A DNA stretch of 42,768 nt from a virus (Duplodnaviria > Heunggongvirae > Uroviricota > Caudoviricetes): positions 1-42,768 of the IMG/VR virus record IMGVR_UViG_2531839663_000008; one strand, given 5' to 3'. Positions 1,434-8,141 of the stretch are shown one piece after another (positions within the stretch are counted from its first letter, which is position 1; each line of letters begins with the position of its first letter). Below the pieces are notes generated by a model, which was given only the letters and a program-made list of their open reading frames with translations, had not been told where the DNA came from and ran no database searches. Made by a program: the position numbers and the translations under genes.

Positions 1434-1675
1434 CCAACCTGCCCGGGCAGGGAGCGGAGACGGCGCATGCCGGTCATCGCTGTGGCCACGTAGCTCGCCT
1501 TTCGGTTCACCACCTCCACCCAGACTTTCACGCCTTCAACCTTCACCGTATAAGTCTCTTTCATCTTGCTTCGCCCATAGTCGCCATATGTTTGCAAGTG
1601 AGCCGCCAGCGCAACATCGCAAGCGCGGCGACCAATAGGTGATTGCTTACTGCGATTAATCAGCTTCATCATCAC
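1430..1675 (-). CDS. Hypothetical phage protein
   Basis: 81-aa ORF, 4-nt overlaps with both neighbours in a co-directional operon. Confidence 0.4.
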   Translation of the reverse strand: MMMKLINRSKQSPIGRRACDVALAAHLQTYGDYGRSKMKETYTVKVEGVKVWVEVVNRKASYVATAMTGMRRLRSLPGQVG

Positions 1676-2556
1676 TGCACTCCCAAAGTGGCTACGACAT
1701 CACTCGCTGTTTCGCGGGTACTGCCTTTGCTGGATATAGCCCGGCGAGCACTGACGCGGTGCAGCGTGAAGCCGTGCTGTTCGTAAAGTTCAATTACGCG
1801 CGGAGCGGTAGAATTGCTGATCACCACTTTTGCCCCCCGCTGGTGGGCTGCCACACAGCTTTCCGTAAGTTCTACCTGGCTATCCCATGAGAACCCACCA
1901 GCCGCATAGTTAGTGAAACCAGCGGTGCCGGGCAGCGGCTCATAAGGCGGATCGCAGTAAACGACGTCACCATCACCTGCCAGCGCGAGCGTGCGCCTGA
2001 AGCCTGCATTCATGAATACGCATGCGTGAGCCTTCCGCTTAAATGCCCTGATCTCTTCTTCCGGGAAATATGGCGCTTTATATTTCCCAAAGCCGACGTT
2101 AAAAAAACCGTCCAGGTTATAACGGATCAGCCCGTTGAAGCAGTGCCGGTTGAGGTAAAGGAACGCTGCTGCGCGCTCGACCGCATCCAGCCGCTGCGCG
2201 TTGAATGCTTCACGAATTACCGTGTAGTTTTCGGCATCATTCAGATGCCTGAATGCCTTCATTGCCTCATAGATCACCGAGTCGGGGACCACCGCCAGCA
2301 TCTGATACAGGTTAATCAGGTCAGCGTTGACGTCAGCCAGAAGAAAGCGTTCGTGCTTGTCTGAGTTAAGGAACACCGAGCCGCCACCCACAAAAGGCTC
2401 AATAAGGCGTTTACCTGCGGGGATCAAACGATCCAGTTCCGGCAGCAGCGAATATTTGCCGCCAGCCCATTTAAGGAACGGGCGCTGCCAGCTTCGCAGC
2501 GCCGGTTCTTCTATGGGCATCGCCGCAGCTCCACTGCAAACAGAGCCGTATCTCAT
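1672..2556 (-). CDS. dam: DNA adenine methyltransferase, Dam family (GATC-type N6-adenine MTase)
   Basis: 294 aa; N-terminal KWAGGK and central DPPY motif typical of Dam/alpha-class N6-adenine MTases. Confidence 0.8.
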   Translation of the reverse strand: MRYGSVCSGAAAMPIEEPALRSWQRPFLKWAGGKYSLLPELDRLIPAGKRLIEPFVGGGSVFLNSDKHERFLLADVNADLINLYQMLAVVPDSVIYEAMKAFRHLNDAENYTVIREAFNAQRLDAVERAAAFLYLNRHCFNGLIRYNLDGFFNVGFGKYKAPYFPEEEIRAFKRKAHACVFMNAGFRRTLALAGDGDVVYCDPPYEPLPGTAGFTNYAAGGFSWDSQVELTESCVAAHQRGAKVVISNSTAPRVIELYEQHGFTLHRVSARRAISSKGSTRETASDVVATLGVQ

Positions 2557-3617
2557 GCTGCGACCTCAAAGCTCTTTGCCGTAATAGCTTGGATTAGTCT
2601 CACCGAAGCAGCTTTTTGTGAAGCAACGCTGGCAATAACCGTCGCTCTATCTTTTTCAGTGCTGGCGCAGACACCGGACCAGGATGAAATGAGGAAGAAA
2701 TTCTCCAACTCACTCATAGTGGAATTATTTACTAACTCCTCAATCATCTGCACAATGATGTGTGCAGGGCGATGCCGTAGTAGTTCCTGCATTGCGTAGC
2801 CAAACGCATTGATCATCACCGCGTGGAACTGGATGTAATCCCGCTTATATTCAGCAGGCGTACAACCATGCCTAATTCCCTCGATGGCTGTTAGCTTGAG
2901 CCATGCCTCCCAAATGTCATAGATGTCACTAGTAGCAAGCTCATCCCCATTGACAGAGAATTTTGCAGTTGCATCACTCAGGGGTTTGAAGCTAATCCAG
3001 AGATCGCTTTTCGCCGGAACCACGTTGTGTTCAAAGTCTGTTATTTCTGAGAACACGGCATGGGATGACAAAAACGAAACCATATCTTGAGCAATTTTAT
3101 CCCTACCGTTATAGGCCATATTGATGGCCGCTGATGGCTTCGATACGTTGTTGTTGATGTCGGAAAAGAACTGCTGGCGCGTTTTGAGCGGCAGTTGGTG
3201 TGTCAGCATCATTGGGATGTGAATAGGCTCTCCGTAAGTGCGGCAGAACTCCGCAATGCCTGCGGCGCGATGCTGACCGTCAAACAGTTTAATCTCCGCA
3301 TCCATTGGGAATCGCGCAACACCCACATTCGTATTGCCAAACTCTTCGAACTCAATGAGTGAGTCGCAGTTTCCAACCAGCGGCGGGATGATGAACGGCT
3401 CTTTTTTCTCGTAAGCTGTTCGCAGATACTCATAAAACTTCTTCGCACGTGCTGGATTGAGTTCTCGCTGAGAACGCTCAAGCGTATTGCCGTGGTTATC
3501 TGATGCCAGAACGCGAGTTAGCGCGCGCGCTGGGACTGTCATCATCAACACAACCGTATTTCCCTGTAAGCCTCTTGATGCCGGGAATTCAAAGAAATAG
3601 TCACCAATTTTGCTCAT
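2553..3617 (-). CDS. DGQHR-motif protein (DndB-like, ParB/Srx superfamily)
   Basis: Literal FDGQHRAAG motif in the N-terminal third; start placed at second ATG, which has a GAGGA RBS about 9 nt upstream; stop overlaps the dam start by 4 nt. Confidence 0.6.
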   Translation of the reverse strand: MSKIGDYFFEFPASRGLQGNTVVLMMTVPARALTRVLASDNHGNTLERSQRELNPARAKKFYEYLRTAYEKKEPFIIPPLVGNCDSLIEFEEFGNTNVGVARFPMDAEIKLFDGQHRAAGIAEFCRTYGEPIHIPMMLTHQLPLKTRQQFFSDINNNVSKPSAAINMAYNGRDKIAQDMVSFLSSHAVFSEITDFEHNVVPAKSDLWISFKPLSDATAKFSVNGDELATSDIYDIWEAWLKLTAIEGIRHGCTPAEYKRDYIQFHAVMINAFGYAMQELLRHRPAHIIVQMIEELVNNSTMSELENFFLISSWSGVCASTEKDRATVIASVASQKAASVRLIQAITAKSFEVAA

Positions 3618-3694
3618 GCTTCCGTCCTCTAACATTTAATTCTTCAACATGGGATGGCGCACCGCGCCAACCCTGATGTCGTCGTGAGCGTGAG

Positions 3695-4123
3695 TCATAG
3701 GATGGACTCCATTTCGTCGATGTAGAGGCCCTGAGCAATCAGGCGGCTACGGCGGGCGGCACGGGCTATGCACTCCTGCCGTCTACCTTCCTGCGATTGC
3801 TCAATGGCGCGCCGGGTGAACAGGCGCGATTTGCCCTGCGGCGTCACAACCTTCGGCTTCGTGACCAGGTCGAAAGTCCGGTCGCAGATGCCGTCCCCGT
3901 TGATCCACTTTTCCGACTCAACGATCTGCGCTATCTGTCCGGAGCCGCGGGTAATACCGTTGGCTACCCGGTTAAACTCGATGAGCGTTACGCCAAACTT
4001 CTCAGCGATTTCGCTGCCGGTTACCGGGCGGCCGCGCGTCTGAATCATCCAGATAACGCGCTCACGAAGGCCGGAGAATTGCCCGGTGCGCCCTGGCCTG
4101 CGGTAAAATGGTGTGCGTTTCAT
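3695..4123 (-). CDS. Hypothetical phage protein (basic, possible HTH)
   Basis: 142-aa ORF in the leftward operon; 4-nt overlap with the downstream exonuclease gene. Confidence 0.45.
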   Translation of the reverse strand: MKRTPFYRRPGRTGQFSGLRERVIWMIQTRGRPVTGSEIAEKFGVTLIEFNRVANGITRGSGQIAQIVESEKWINGDGICDRTFDLVTKPKVVTPQGKSRLFTRRAIEQSQEGRRQECIARAARRSRLIAQGLYIDEMESIL

Positions 4124-4737
4124 GCTGCACGCTCTGTGATTTTCTGAATTTCCGATTCCAGATCTGCAAGGAAGCTCTTAACCTCAGATTCGATTTCGCG
4201 CGCCAGCTCTTCATCGAAATGAATCCGCTTCTTGAAATAGGCGAGGTCAGGCGGCAGGCGATCATCGAAACTAACGAAATCACACCATTTCCGCCCGGTG
4301 CACATCATCTGTGCATGCATTTGCAGCATGTACTGGCGCTTTGGCTCACCAGTTTTCAGCGTTTCAAGATGGGTCCAGGTGTTGGGGCATTTGATTTCGA
4401 TAAGCCCGTCGTCGTTGACAAGTCCGTCCGGGCTGGCTGCGAATCCGGGTATGGTTGGGTGATCGATGAGCCCAACTTCAGTGATTGCCGCATTGAACTC
4501 ATTCAGCGCGTACATTTCGCGTGCCACTGGCTCAAGTTCAGTGCCGCGCATCATCGCGGCATTCGAAAACCCTTCCTCCAGCTTCCCGGTCAGCCGTTGG
4601 CAAATCAGCTCGGCCATGTAGTTCTGGCGGCTGGTGGAGTAGCCCGACTTAGTCCGGGCCATGACATCAGCCAGGCGACTGGCTGTGACCTTGCCGCAGC
4701 GCGCAGCAAACCATTCAGGGGTGCGTTGCTCTATCAT
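4120..4737 (-). CDS. YqaJ-like viral recombination exonuclease
   Basis: 205 aa; N-terminal RTPEWFAAR and PD-(D/E)xK-type GLIEIKCP motif; adjacent to and overlapping recT. Confidence 0.8.
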   Translation of the reverse strand: MIEQRTPEWFAARCGKVTASRLADVMARTKSGYSTSRQNYMAELICQRLTGKLEEGFSNAAMMRGTELEPVAREMYALNEFNAAITEVGLIDHPTIPGFAASPDGLVNDDGLIEIKCPNTWTHLETLKTGEPKRQYMLQMHAQMMCTGRKWCDFVSFDDRLPPDLAYFKKRIHFDEELAREIESEVKSFLADLESEIQKITERAA

Positions 4738-5495
4738 TCAGCCTCCGTCTCTGCGACATTGACAGGTTCGGCGTTGTCGACAGCAAGACTCATGTCATAC
4801 ATGCGTCGTTTCTCAACTGCGCCGATCACCTGTTTCTCTTCGGCGCTCAGCGCCACCCAGAACTCCTGATACTTAACGGTTCCAAGGCGCGCGGCGGACT
4901 CACCTTTTGCGATCAGTTCCGGGCGGCGGCTATCTGATTCATGGCCCGCATGAACCTCTGCCGTTGTTCCTTCAATTACTCGCTCTGCCTCGTCCTGGTC
5001 GAAGATGCCAGCGAAACCAAAGGCCAGACGCGCGCACTGGATCAGCGTCTTGTGGCGAAGCATGCGGGTAGGGTGGGACTGCCATGGCTGAGTGTTGCGT
5101 TTGCACTCTCCCATGTACTCGGTGACGATGGTCGGGTGCTTACGGTCTTTGCGGTAAATCTTGCAGGTACACGCGCCTTCCTCCTTGTCGTAAGAGAACT
5201 CCATGCCGTCAAACTGAGGATGCTCGTTGATAATGCGAGCCCATCCATCAACGCCGACGACCGGGACAATCCCGCCTTTATCTGGGAATGCGTAAATCTC
5301 TTTGGTCCATGGGTTCAGGCCGTACTGGTTGGCGACGATCAACAGGGCTGTAAACTGCTCGTCCGTGACGTTGCCACTTTTGAACGCTGTATTCTTCAGC
5401 GTATTCATCAGGTCTGTACCGGCATCCATGCCGAGGCGTGCGGCCAGTTTCCCGGCCATGGTGGAAAGTGCAGTACTCATTGTTAAATCCCTCAA
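4734..5495 (-). CDS. recT: RecT-family single-strand annealing protein
   Basis: 253 aa; RecT-like sequence, paired with the YqaJ exonuclease as in Rac/lambdoid recombination modules. Confidence 0.8.
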   Translation of the reverse strand: MRDLTMSTALSTMAGKLAARLGMDAGTDLMNTLKNTAFKSGNVTDEQFTALLIVANQYGLNPWTKEIYAFPDKGGIVPVVGVDGWARIINEHPQFDGMEFSYDKEEGACTCKIYRKDRKHPTIVTEYMGECKRNTQPWQSHPTRMLRHKTLIQCARLAFGFAGIFDQDEAERVIEGTTAEVHAGHESDSRRPELIAKGESAARLGTVKYQEFWVALSAEEKQVIGAVEKRRMYDMSLAVDNAEPVNVAETEAE

Positions 5496-5498
5496 AAA

Positions 5499-5783
5499 TT
5501 AAAACGGGCAGCCGGTACGGTGTTCCCAGTCGTATTCCGCCTGGGCGTAAGCAACTACCGAAATGAAATCGTTGTAGGCCTCGCCAGCTTTATCGCTGCG
5601 AAGCCCTTCGTATGGGCTGGAGTCTATCGGGATCGTGAAGTGGAAGAGGCCGGACGGCTCTTTAGGCATCATGTCGATGATTTTCTGCGCCCGGTCGTCG
5701 ATCCACTTCTCTTTCTCGTCGGTGATCTGCTGCTCAGCCCAGCGCCGATCTTCGATGCGGTCGTAAGTGAGGTATGCGTTCAT
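5499..5783 (-). CDS. Hypothetical phage protein
   Basis: 94-aa ORF co-directional in the early-left operon. Confidence 0.45.
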   Translation of the reverse strand: MNAYLTYDRIEDRRWAEQQITDEKEKWIDDRAQKIIDMMPKEPSGLFHFTIPIDSSPYEGLRSDKAGEAYNDFISVVAYAQAEYDWEHRTGCPF

Positions 5784-5790
5784 GGTTGCC

Positions 5791-6762
5791 TCAGTAATGA
5801 ATTTTCGCGCAGGGGATCAGGTCATCTTTCAGAGCGGTAAGCACTTCGATAGCCTGCTCGCGGGTTAAGCTGGTTTGGCTGGTGAGCGCGTTAACGATGT
5901 TGGTGCCGACCGTCTTGCGGTGCTTAACGTCAGCTTCACGCTTTGCCTGCTCATCGGCGAGGCGCTTCTCTTCGGCCAGGCGGGCATCTTCGGCCTGTTT
6001 GGCCTTCAGGCGCTCGGCTTCAACCGCCGCGGCTTTTTCGCGTTCCGCCCGGGCTTCCGCTTCCTGCTTCTCGCGAGCTGCACGCTGTTCCGCTTCGACG
6101 CGCTGGCGCTCCGCCAGTTCAGCGCGGGCTTTCTCTTCGGCTTCACGGCGCGCTGCGGCTTCAATCTCCGCTTTGTGCTTCGCTTCGGCATCGCGGCGGG
6201 CTTGTTCTGCCGCTTCCTGTTTCAGCCGCTCATCACGTTCACGCTGAGCCTGTTCCGCCAGACGGCGCTGCTCTTCGCGGTCACGGTCAAAATCCTTGTT
6301 CATCAGTAGAGCCATTTCGTGGTCCGCTTCGAACTTGGCAGCCAGCTCCTGATCGAACCTGATGTTCATCTCCAGCGCTTCGGCGTGCATCGCGTTCATG
6401 GCTTCTTCAGCCTTAATGCGTTCCTGCTCGGCTTCCCATTCGGTGAGTGGGCGGCGGGTCGCATCGCGCAGCTCGTCGCAGGCATCAACGAATCGCTTAA
6501 TTTCGGCCTCAGCCGGACGCACAGCCTCTTTCAGGCGCTTCAGGTACTCACGGCCCGGCTTTTCGATTGCCGTCTTGCTGCGGGACACCTGCGCTGCCAG
6601 AGAGGCAACACGGTCACGGCCTTTCTTCGTGGACAGGTCCGACACTTCGTTTACAGCCTGGCGGATTTGCTCAAGGTACGCGTCAAGGCCGCCCGCTACG
6701 TAAAGCACTGGGGCCTGTTCCGGCTTGATTTCGATGACAGTTAAGTCCGTTACTTCGCTCAT
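5791..6762 (-). CDS. Coiled-coil protein with low-complexity A/E/R/K repeat region
   Basis: Start placed at internal ATG preceded by AGGAGA RBS; long run of EAxRxAEEK-type repeats gives shadow ORFs in other frames. Confidence 0.55.
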   Translation of the reverse strand: MSEVTDLTVIEIKPEQAPVLYVAGGLDAYLEQIRQAVNEVSDLSTKKGRDRVASLAAQVSRSKTAIEKPGREYLKRLKEAVRPAEAEIKRFVDACDELRDATRRPLTEWEAEQERIKAEEAMNAMHAEALEMNIRFDQELAAKFEADHEMALLMNKDFDRDREEQRRLAEQAQRERDERLKQEAAEQARRDAEAKHKAEIEAAARREAEEKARAELAERQRVEAEQRAAREKQEAEARAEREKAAAVEAERLKAKQAEDARLAEEKRLADEQAKREADVKHRKTVGTNIVNALTSQTSLTREQAIEVLTALKDDLIPCAKIHY

Positions 6763-6832
6763 GGTTTCTCCTGAAATTTGGATGTGCAGATCCCGCCCGC
6801 GTAATGCCAGGCCGAACGGTTGAATAGGGTGG

Positions 6833-7042
6833 TTAGTGCTGGATAGGGTTGCCGTGACCGTCAAGAAGGACGTCAATCACGCAGTCACTGAGTCGGATTA
6901 TTTCTGCGTCAGTGTGCAGGTATACCCATTTGCGCTCCTGAATGACTGCTGAGACGCGATATGTGCGGCCTTCATGCAATGCCATCATGCCGGGCGTGAC
7001 GCACTGGCGAATGAGCGGGGTGGTGCCGTAGTGGTTGATCAT
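6833..7042 (-). CDS. Hypothetical small protein
   Basis: 69-aa ORF; 4-nt overlap with the upstream gene. Confidence 0.4.
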   Translation of the reverse strand: MINHYGTTPLIRQCVTPGMMALHEGRTYRVSAVIQERKWVYLHTDAEIIRLSDCVIDVLLDGHGNPIQH

Positions 7043-7197
7043 GCCTTCACCTCAACCTGTTCCAGGAGGCCAGCGATATTCATCTGTTGGCGGTTCATCG
7101 TCAGCTTTTCACGCGGGTTAGATACCGACGTCAGCTGCCACTCGTTATCGTTGAGCTTTTTGGCGGTGTACTGCTTGCCGTTGTGGGTGACTGTCAT
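7039..7197 (-). CDS. Hypothetical small protein
   Basis: Start placed at internal ATG (MTVTHNGK...) with AAGGTGG RBS upstream; ORF-track start 7239 is probably an over-extension. Confidence 0.4.
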   Translation of the reverse strand: MTVTHNGKQYTAKKLNDNEWQLTSVSNPREKLTMNRQQMNIAGLLEQVEVKA

Positions 7198-7198
7198 C

Positions 7199-7408
7199 TC
7201 ACACCACCTTGAATAAGAACCAGCCCATACCGCACACAATCAGGCCCACAATGGTTATTGCGGAAGACATGCGTACATGGTCAATGGCTAGTTTTGAAAG
7301 TGGCTGGCGATGTTCTTTTTTCGTCAGCGAGTTGATTGCTATGCCGAGCAGAAACGTCCCGACAAACCATAATGCGTATATCTTTAAGCCCAACTCCAAA
7401 TCACTCAT
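7199..7408 (-). CDS. Small membrane protein (two predicted TM helices)
   Basis: 69 aa with two hydrophobic stretches (IYALWFVGTFLLGIAI and AITIVGLIVCGMGWFLF). Confidence 0.45.
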   Translation of the reverse strand: MSDLELGLKIYALWFVGTFLLGIAINSLTKKEHRQPLSKLAIDHVRMSSAITIVGLIVCGMGWFLFKVV

Positions 7409-7575: not shown

Positions 7576-7716
7576 CTTAATCATTGGGTAAGCCAGAGCA
7601 ATTACACCTGCCACTAATACCCCGTCAGCCAGCATCGACATCAACTTCCCGGTGAAATCGACAGCAATCACCAGGAAGAGGAGGACGCCGATAATCAACC
7701 AGCGCAATTTATCCAT
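7576..7716 (-). CDS. Possible micro-membrane peptide (about 46 aa), absent from ORF track
   Basis: ATG at 7716 abuts the TerB-like stop; translation begins MDKLRWLIIGVLLFLVIAVDF (hydrophobic helix); exact frame and stop not verified. Confidence 0.3.
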
Positions 7717-8141
7717 CAGATATAAGCGTCGAGTGATAACTGAAGAGCCTGAGCGATTTTCTTCAGCTGTTTTTCTTCGTCTTCGCCGATGCCGTCGTTA
7801 TCGGCTACGTCAAGGCACAGGCAGAGCACATCAACTGCGTCTGGAGTACCTGCCACATCTGCAAGTTCGCGCATTGCCTGGGCATTAGCAGAGCGAGGGG
7901 ACGCTTCGTACTGTGCGCGAATGTTGCTGCTCATGCTGGCGATCTCACCTGCGAAAGCAGAGAACGCTGGTTTTGCCTGAATGGTTTTCTCCAGCGTTGC
8001 AATTTCTGACGCATCACAAGTACCGTCTGCATAAGCGATCGAGTAACAGCCCCACACCGTTGCTTCAACTGCGTCGCGGTTTTCCATCTTCTTCACTTCG
8101 ACGATCGCCTTGCGTGCTTTTTTCTTAAACAGTCCGAACAT
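7716..8141 (-). CDS. TerB-like domain protein
   Basis: 141 aa with two YADG/DNDG ... DE.E.K-type repeats resembling TerB; first gene downstream of the leftward operator/promoter. Confidence 0.5.
   Translation of the reverse strand: MFGLFKKKARKAIVEVKKMENRDAVEATVWGCYSIAYADGTCDASEIATLEKTIQAKPAFSAFAGEIASMSSNIRAQYEASPRSANAQAMRELADVAGTPDAVDVLCLCLDVADNDGIGEDEEKQLKKIAQALQLSLDAYI

Follow-up and report, generated by a model that had tools for sequence, protein, structure and literature searches.

The stretch analyzed here, referred to as the window, comprises positions 1 to 42,768 of the IMG/VR record IMGVR_UViG_2531839663_000008 (Caudoviricetes), 42,768 nucleotides in all, and represents a phi80-like lambdoid prophage in which int (positions 1-1194) is followed by an early operon read leftward, by cI at approximately 8.5-9.3 kb, and by rightward genes beyond. 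The subject of this analysis is a gene of the recombination module at 5791-6762 on the minus strand, whose product an earlier note, made from the sequence alone, had described as a low-complexity charged coiled-coil protein. The open reading frame (ORF) encodes 323 amino acids followed by a TGA stop codon and is orthologous to phi80 agt/mog (YP_007947961.1).

The agt-like gene and its operon

The translated product begins with MSEVTDL and terminates with AKIHY. Read directly from the sequence, the gene starts with ATG at 6762 and ends with TGA at 5791-5793, and a Shine-Dalgarno sequence, AGGAG (6768-6772, minus strand), lies about 5-6 nt before the start codon. In family alignments the N-termini coincide at the MSE position, which further backs ATG 6762 as the start; a longer version of the ORF, beginning with TTG and extending to 6876, was rejected because it runs into kil and the family N-termini all begin at MSE instead. 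The ORF reported earlier corresponds exactly to this minus-strand frame, with its ATG, AGGAG, and TGA, and is a genuine phage gene. The gene received its name in 2012, and the allele seen here is a mosaic; both the protein and its PHROG number are already in databases; an identical protein occurs in public E. coli assemblies under the name “hypothetical protein”.

BLASTP aligns the protein end to end with Agt of phi80 (Lula; AFV29176.1 / YP_007947961.1; 322 aa compared with 323 aa here), at 80% identity and an E-value of 3e-153. The identity is distributed unevenly, reaching 98% over residues 1-158 and falling to about 60% beyond them, and the C-terminal third of the window protein is a mosaic that sets it apart from phi80 Agt. 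At the DNA level, the gene is at least 92% identical to phi80 from approximately 6790 to approximately 6130 (until about codon 210), whereas between approximately 6066 and 5830 it shows 35-60% identity to phi80 and 70-75% to Klebsiella phage RCIP0098. The downstream gamL behaves similarly: its first ~25 codons are 93-97% identical to phi80 DNA, while its product as a whole is 93% identical to HK639 GamL and merely 52% identical to phi80 GamL. Being HK639-like overall and phi80-like in its first codons, gamL therefore contains a mosaic joint, as agt does.

In the phi80 records of GenBank and RefSeq, agt carries the annotation “anti-toxin for Gam”, to which a note adds “Mog (modifier of Gam)”; the note attached to gamL reads “toxic without Mog”. 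The antitoxin label rests on the annotation of this one phage, and full-text literature searches returned no match for an antitoxin claim concerning Agt. The earlier note had called the function unknown and had named clear homology to a characterized protein as what would overturn its description. The 80% identity to the named Agt/Mog of phi80 goes some way in that direction, though weakly: the gene now has a name and an annotated role.

Pfam and PHROG annotation gives the module order kil > agt-like > gamL > recT > exo, all on the minus strand. Directly upstream of agt lies a kil-like gene (6833-7042; PHROG 294, E 6.5e-30). Downstream, gamL (5499-5783) encodes a phi80-type Gam-like host nuclease inhibitor of 94 aa (NCBIfam NF033500 phi80_GamL, E 7.5e-45; PHROG 1050), recT (4734-5480) a single-strand annealing protein (Pfam RecT, E 3e-28; PHROG 252), and exo (4120-4737) a YqaJ-type exonuclease (Pfam YqaJ, E 1e-25). 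The placement in a recombination module thus holds, with the correction that the direct neighbor is gamL and not recT, beside which the gene had been put. In phi80, agt likewise lies between the kil region and gamL-recT-exo, and the 7-nt gap between agt and gamL is the same in the window, in phi80, and in 42 related loci. The Shine-Dalgarno sequence of gamL, GAGG (5789-5792, minus strand, read directly), overlaps the TGA of agt, an arrangement in which the two genes may be translationally coupled. From kil to recT the minus strand shows no promoter-like or terminator-like site, and these genes are therefore co-transcribed.

Three-part architecture and the charged stretch

The protein consists of two end domains separated by a long helical region. 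The N-terminal domain, residues 1-120 (6403-6762, minus strand), is defined by alignments and by helices modeled by AlphaFold2 (AF2) with a predicted local distance difference test score (pLDDT) of about 90. Its family motif is EVPDLxTxKGRxxIASLAxxVSRSKTAVEKPGRxYL...LRDEVRxPLTxWE, with P105 invariant. It is followed by an amphipathic helical segment containing M, L, and F, residues 121-160 (6283-6402, minus strand), which runs into a predicted helix break at residues 155-168. Residues 161-280 (5923-6282, minus strand) form a predicted charged spacer of the ER/K single-alpha-helix type, delimited by composition, charge-pair statistics, and AF2. The C-terminal mini-domain, residues 281-323 (5794-5922, minus strand), is seen in alignments and modeled by AF2 as helix, turn, helix 301-312, and extended tail; its motif, HRxxINxxxxxxLxxxGxxExxAKxxxxAIAxGxxxxVxIxY, occupies the last ~45 residues and always forms the end of the protein.

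With an alignment of 76 sequences, AF2 returned a model with a pLDDT of 88 and helices at 46-154, 169-296, and 301-312, the score falling below 50 at the break (155-168) and exceeding 90 over the helix 169-296; the model obtained without an alignment was poorer. A stretch of at least 80% A/E/R/K/Q/D is present in 101 of 102 full-length family representatives. In the 93 representatives with the longest stretches, its median length is 138 aa (range 73-233), and the median distance from its end to the C-terminus is 38 residues. Because the three-part design is conserved across the family, all three parts are under selection, and the charged stretch is a designed feature and not filler.

Over residues 161-280, the protein is composed of 27% A, 24% E, 17.5% R, 9% K, and 8% Q, so that 86% of the stretch is A/E/R/K/Q and 56% is charged; hydrophobic residues make up 10 of 120 positions (8%), and the median hydrophobic content of the charged stretch across the family is 12%. 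The low-complexity charged character given in the earlier note is thus borne out, and the length of about 150 residues quoted there is roughly correct (about 120 on a strict and about 170 on a loose definition). Charges of opposite sign are paired at the i,i+4 spacing 36 times, against 18.1 ± 3.3 in composition-preserving shuffles (z 5.5), while like-charge i,i+4 pairs number 3 against 17.8 (z -4.5); at other spacings within this stretch opposite-charge pairs show no enrichment. The i,i+4 excess is found family-wide, with a median z of 3.9 and z above 3 in 73% of members.

A canonical coiled coil would be expected to carry a hydrophobic seam, which the charged stretch lacks: in the best heptad register, L, I, V, M, F, Y, or W occupies just 12-25% of the a/d positions over residues 169-266, and no 3.5-residue periodicity was detected. 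The N-terminal part (residues 15-154) has amphipathic helices with 50-75% hydrophobic a/d occupancy. The charge statistics and the AF2 model are those expected of a single alpha-helix (SAH), either ER/K-type or alanine-based, and the coiled coil suggested for this stretch is not borne out by its a/d occupancy and lack of periodicity. If fully helical, the stretch would measure about 18-19 nm by calculation. Domains of the ER/K SAH type occur in myosin VI and X and in caldesmon, and designed A(EAAAK)n linkers are related examples. Like them, the window stretch is highly charged and hydrophobic-poor, has an excess of opposite-charge and a depletion of like-charge i,i+4 pairs, and is predicted as a single continuous helix. 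It differs in being richer in alanine (27%), and the resemblance is one of functional analogy, not homology.

The composition of the protein is mirrored in its DNA. Under the charged stretch the G+C content is 65%, with 0.90 at first codon positions (GC1), compared with ~52% G+C windowwide, which agrees with the GC-rich sequence described earlier. The repeats and repetitive DNA described along with it were not recovered: Tandem Repeats Finder reported no tandem repeats even at a score of 30, and the direct matches located in the gene by a repeat finder are short and imperfect (23-29 nt, 66-78% identity). The low complexity of the DNA is a compositional bias of GAR/GCN/CGN/AAR codons. A listing of stop-free frames contains five antisense shadow ORFs of 113-144 aa on the plus strand (5875-6309, 5882-6247, 5943-6362, 6319-6744, and 6362-6703), and another frame of the strand that encodes agt holds an ORF of 61 aa. 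The antisense frames remain free of stops because the run of GAR/GCN/CGN/AAR/CAG codons leaves no TTA, CTA, or TCA, and their products are rich in S/A/R/F/L, as expected opposite GAR/GCN/CGN codons. These five overlapping ORFs, antisense to a conserved gene that is preceded by a ribosome-binding site in a leftward operon, are codon-composition artifacts and not genes, in keeping with their earlier description as shadow ORFs.

The end domains were compared with known folds. An hmmsearch of the C-terminal profile against the PDB returned RuvA chains of several species (E 0.17-0.65) and a UBA domain (E 0.11). Against a self-built RuvA_C alignment, hhalign gave 56-66% probability over 27-30 columns and a pairwise E of 5e-5 (30 columns), a match below significance at database scale. 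In this alignment, the helix-Gly-turn-helix LxxxGxxExxAKxxxxAI corresponds to the core of RuvA domain III (PF07499, RuvA_C), ALVALGYKPQEASRMVSKI, while the third helix of RuvA is replaced in the Agt family by the extended V-x-I-x-Y tail. For the N-terminal domain, kinship to Sipho_Gp157 and “Mu Gam-like end protection” proteins was considered and rejected, as hhalign gave a probability of 0.2% for both Sfi21 gp157 and the MuGam-like HK639 gp38, each a comparison of a profile with a single sequence and hence of limited power.

Family extent, recombination modules, and GamL

The protein matches PHROG 1376 (function unknown) with an E-value of 2e-98, residues 1-323 aligning to profile positions 1-362 of 362. 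The search with the N-terminal part that had been proposed earlier was productive in relatives: phmmer with residues 1-160 against 1.84 billion cluster representatives found 4140 at E<=1e-3 and 1041 at E<=1e-10, most of them 300-390 aa long. It led to no established family, since scans of the window protein with Pfam, NCBIfam, and PADLOC matched no model, no PDB relative was found, and a Pfam scan of 76 diverse family members returned no family. Thousands of sequence clusters are thus without a Pfam or NCBIfam model, and public records mislabel them as TolA, CheA, or “IgA protease”. The 90%-identity cluster of the window protein has 1323 members, and the phi80 agt allele occurs on at least 1000 contigs. 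Source names in the cluster include “chemotaxis protein histidine kinase CheA” and “IgA-specific serine endopeptidase autotransporter precursor”, which look like misannotation and mis-clustering driven by low complexity. An 804-aa “exodeoxyribonuclease VIII” in the same cluster has no visible similarity and appears to be a clustering artifact. In several deposited phage genomes, relatives are named “TolA” or “cell envelope biogenesis protein”.

A 141-aa protein in ENA joins the Agt N-terminal domain to a match to Pfam DUF1317, the lambda orf60a family, which adjoins exo in lambda; a chimera created by misassembly or a frameshift is the probable explanation. DUF1351 (PF07083) is encoded upstream of recombinases in Gram-positive phages, and a Pfam model scan found no PF07083 match at E<=0.01 among the 76 aligned members. 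In a 2025 survey of 325 lambdoid phages (PMC12315714), GamL is discussed and the Agt family is not listed among the Rec-module genes.

Members of the family are found upstream of Redβ, RecT, Erf, or Sak4 genes in phages of Escherichia, Shigella, Klebsiella, Yersinia, Erwinia, and Pseudomonas. We surveyed three sets of loci, seeded with close relatives of the window protein, with Sf6 gp33, and with MR15 gp39. Of the 204 loci that extend 3 kb or more beyond the family member, 172 have a recognizable single-strand annealing protein gene that begins no more than 3 kb downstream, in the same orientation. This figure is descriptive, carries no statistical test, and, given the small seed set, is a lower bound. 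The recombinase is Erf in 127 of these loci, Redβ in 17, RecT in 17, and Sak4 in 11, so that the family heads recombination modules of four unrelated recombinase types, and near-identical Agt N-domains accompany RecT, Redβ, and Erf modules. In Sf6 the gene order is gp33 > cIII > kil > Erf or Sak4 > Abc2; in Yersinia and Erwinia phages a family member precedes Erf; gp39 of Pseudomonas phage MR15 stands before p47-Sak4-DUF669-exo; and in Pseudomonas phage D3, orf53 lies 8 nt before erf-exo, the gap to erf being 7-8 nt in Pseudomonas phages. None of these has GamL. D3 Orf53 aligns with the window protein from residue 5 to the terminal I-x-Y (32% identity, E 2e-23), and Sf6 gp33, D3 Orf53, and MR15 gp39 share its three-part architecture and belong to PHROG 1376 or related PHROGs.

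The relation to GamL was examined from both sides. Among 80 IMG/VR loci with an Agt N-domain at least 97% identical to that of the window, the adjacent downstream ORF is GamL in 42 (7-nt gap) and p65 (PHROG 7311) in 19 (8-nt gap), the remainder being unassigned; by domain order, ~57 have GamL, and ~19 have p65-Arf-Erf without it. Conversely, 74 loci have a GamL ~95% identical to that of the window together with 1.5 kb or more of sequence upstream of it. An ORF with the Agt N-domain is present in 35 of them and absent from the flanks examined in the other 39, and in 20 of these 39 kil directly abuts gamL. HK639, a propagated isolate, has gamL at 3341-3625 of the compared stretch, and an unfiltered hmmsearch of its whole 49.6-kb genome detected no Agt N- or C-domain (best E 1.7).

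The 65-aa PHROG 7311 protein was observed in RCIP0098 (3980-4177 of the compared stretch) and in about 19 IMG/VR loci, where it takes the place of GamL directly after agt, across the 8-nt gap, with Arf-Erf coming next. This protein may represent a further small nuclease inhibitor, or else a partner that fills the slot of GamL. Two C-terminal variants of Agt exist, each found with GamL and with p65. Given the mosaicism of agt and these combinations of domains and neighbors, the end domains are exchangeable units, with crossover within the low-complexity region.

Possible functions and further genes

In our preferred reading, which we consider about as likely as not, the protein assists the recombination module as a spacer or adaptor, with two end domains held apart by a stiff charged helix. 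The helix would act as a rigid spacer of ~18-20 nm that keeps the end domains apart, and Agt would serve the module as an adaptor or tether. We infer that the end domains are more likely to have DNA or conserved factors of the host as partners than GamL or the phage recombinase, because the N-domains are near-identical across RecT, Redβ, and Erf modules and because the conservation of both end domains extends from enterobacterial phages to those of Pseudomonas. A more specific form of this proposal, in which a ~20-nm helix would link a DNA- or host-factor-binding N-domain to a UBA/RuvA-III-like C-domain recruiting RuvB or a hexameric motor to recombination or replication intermediates, with the phi80 antitoxin phenotype as a side effect, strikes us as distinctly unlikely; binding of RuvB by the C-terminal domain is pure speculation.

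Several observations weigh against an adaptor role. Many of the surveyed loci are near-identical prophages and do not count as independent samples. The early-left operon slot is common to many host-takeover genes, and adjacency to recombination genes may not mean a recombination role. In lambda, recombination by D3 Erf/Exo is as efficient as that by Red even though Orf53 is missing (PMC3945230), and the family is therefore dispensable for core recombination, at least in a heterologous setting. The single-helix assignment is based on sequence statistics together with a monomer AF2 model, and the amphipathic N-terminal helix 46-154 may oligomerize. As for the end domains, sequence, fold, and profile searches with the N-terminal domain gave no significant match, in the PDB or otherwise, and the resemblance of the C-terminal domain to RuvA domain III and UBA is weak and a lead rather than a classification.

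The annotation of phi80 suggests a different function, in which Agt would be a dedicated antitoxin or modifier that binds or neutralizes GamL so that inhibition of RecBCD/SbcCD spares the cell. The labels on both phi80 genes agree with this, as do the antitoxin-first gene order, the short gap, the overlap of the gamL Shine-Dalgarno sequence with the agt stop, and the fact that, in the closest relatives, GamL is found downstream more often than any other gene. The distribution of the two genes argues the other way: more than half of the examined gamL loci, and HK639 genome-wide, are without an Agt domain, near-identical Agt N-domains precede p65-Arf-Erf without GamL, and in Sf6, D3, MR15, and the phages of Yersinia and Erwinia the family is present and GamL is not. 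A type II toxin-antitoxin system would pair its genes obligately, and the 39 gamL loci, HK639, the 19 close agt loci with p65 downstream, and every distant agt locus examined depart from such pairing. Its antitoxin-first order with a tight junction is present here, and an equally tight junction is formed with downstream genes other than gamL. Of the HTH, RHH, or AbrB domain in a small labile protein there is no sign: Pfam, NCBIfam, and PADLOC detected no DNA-binding or antitoxin-type domain, the 76 members scanned have none, and the window protein, 323 aa and mostly long helix, with an 18-nm spacer, would be an odd means of neutralizing a protein of 94 aa. Since Agt and GamL often occur apart, a dedicated antitoxin role is not the general function of the family, and as the main function it seems to us possible but somewhat improbable. 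The phi80 phenotype may nonetheless be real: in phi80-type phages, agt before gamL may relieve GamL toxicity, either because Agt binds GamL or because the placement of gamL behind agt couples and limits its translation.

It is also conceivable, though in our estimate unlikely, that the protein serves host takeover or anti-defense, is unrelated to recombination, and merely shares the early-left slot with kil, cIII, ral, and gam. Its neighbors in various phages are indeed kil, cIII, ral-like genes, and nuclease inhibitors, the end domains look conserved whatever the recombinase type, which suggests a host target, and D3 Erf/Exo function without the family member. The consistent position at the head of Rec modules and the 7-8-nt junction to erf in Pseudomonas phages speak for a link to recombination instead, and PADLOC, a library of defense and not of anti-defense proteins, gave no match. 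Far less credible is a structural protein that forms a canonical coiled coil as a dimer or trimer, whether a TolA-like envelope protein or a tape-measure-like ruler, which we regard as highly improbable. The “TolA” and “cell envelope biogenesis protein” names of relatives, a weak PHROG match to a tape measure protein (E 4.6e-4), and the a/d occupancy of the N-terminal helices would favor it, and TolA domain II is likewise a long A/E/K-rich helical stretch of low complexity. Such labels are typical of low-complexity A/E/K-rich matches, however, and the tape measure match was set aside as an artifact of this kind. TolA identity was rejected too: no transmembrane segment that could serve as a membrane anchor is present (maximum 19-residue hydropathy 0.69), no TolA C-terminal domain was found, and neither Pfam TolA nor any other family matched. 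The charged stretch has no hydrophobic seam, and the window protein, unlike TolA, is a cytoplasmic early phage protein, encoded in the early operon and not in the tail module.

What this analysis adds is the reading of the charged stretch as a single helix, the conservation of the three-part design, the wide extent of the family, and the poor fit of its only functional label, antitoxin, to the distribution of the genes. If partners of the end domains were found, they could show how temperate phages link their recombination systems to host machinery, and recombineering would gain an additional accessory factor to try.

Further genes were observed around the module. After exo, a 142-aa protein (3695-4123, minus strand) belongs to PHROG 1680, has a weak HTH_11 match, and is labeled “regulator” in HK639; it accompanies the Exo/GamL module in most related loci. 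A DndB-like gene (2553-3635, minus strand; Pfam DndB, E 1.5e-44, with a PADLOC DndB match) overlaps by 4 nt at its end with an intact gene for a D12-class N6-adenine DNA methyltransferase (1672-2556, minus strand; Pfam E 5e-58). Between cI and the kil region lies a gene for a TerB-domain protein (7716-8141, minus strand; Pfam E 2.3e-7; PHROG 632, “tellurite resistance”). Two small overlapping ORFs of 66 aa (PHROG 6396) and 69 aa (PHROG 25975) are located upstream of kil at 7039-7408 on the minus strand, and the product of the 69-aa ORF appears hydrophobic and membrane-like.

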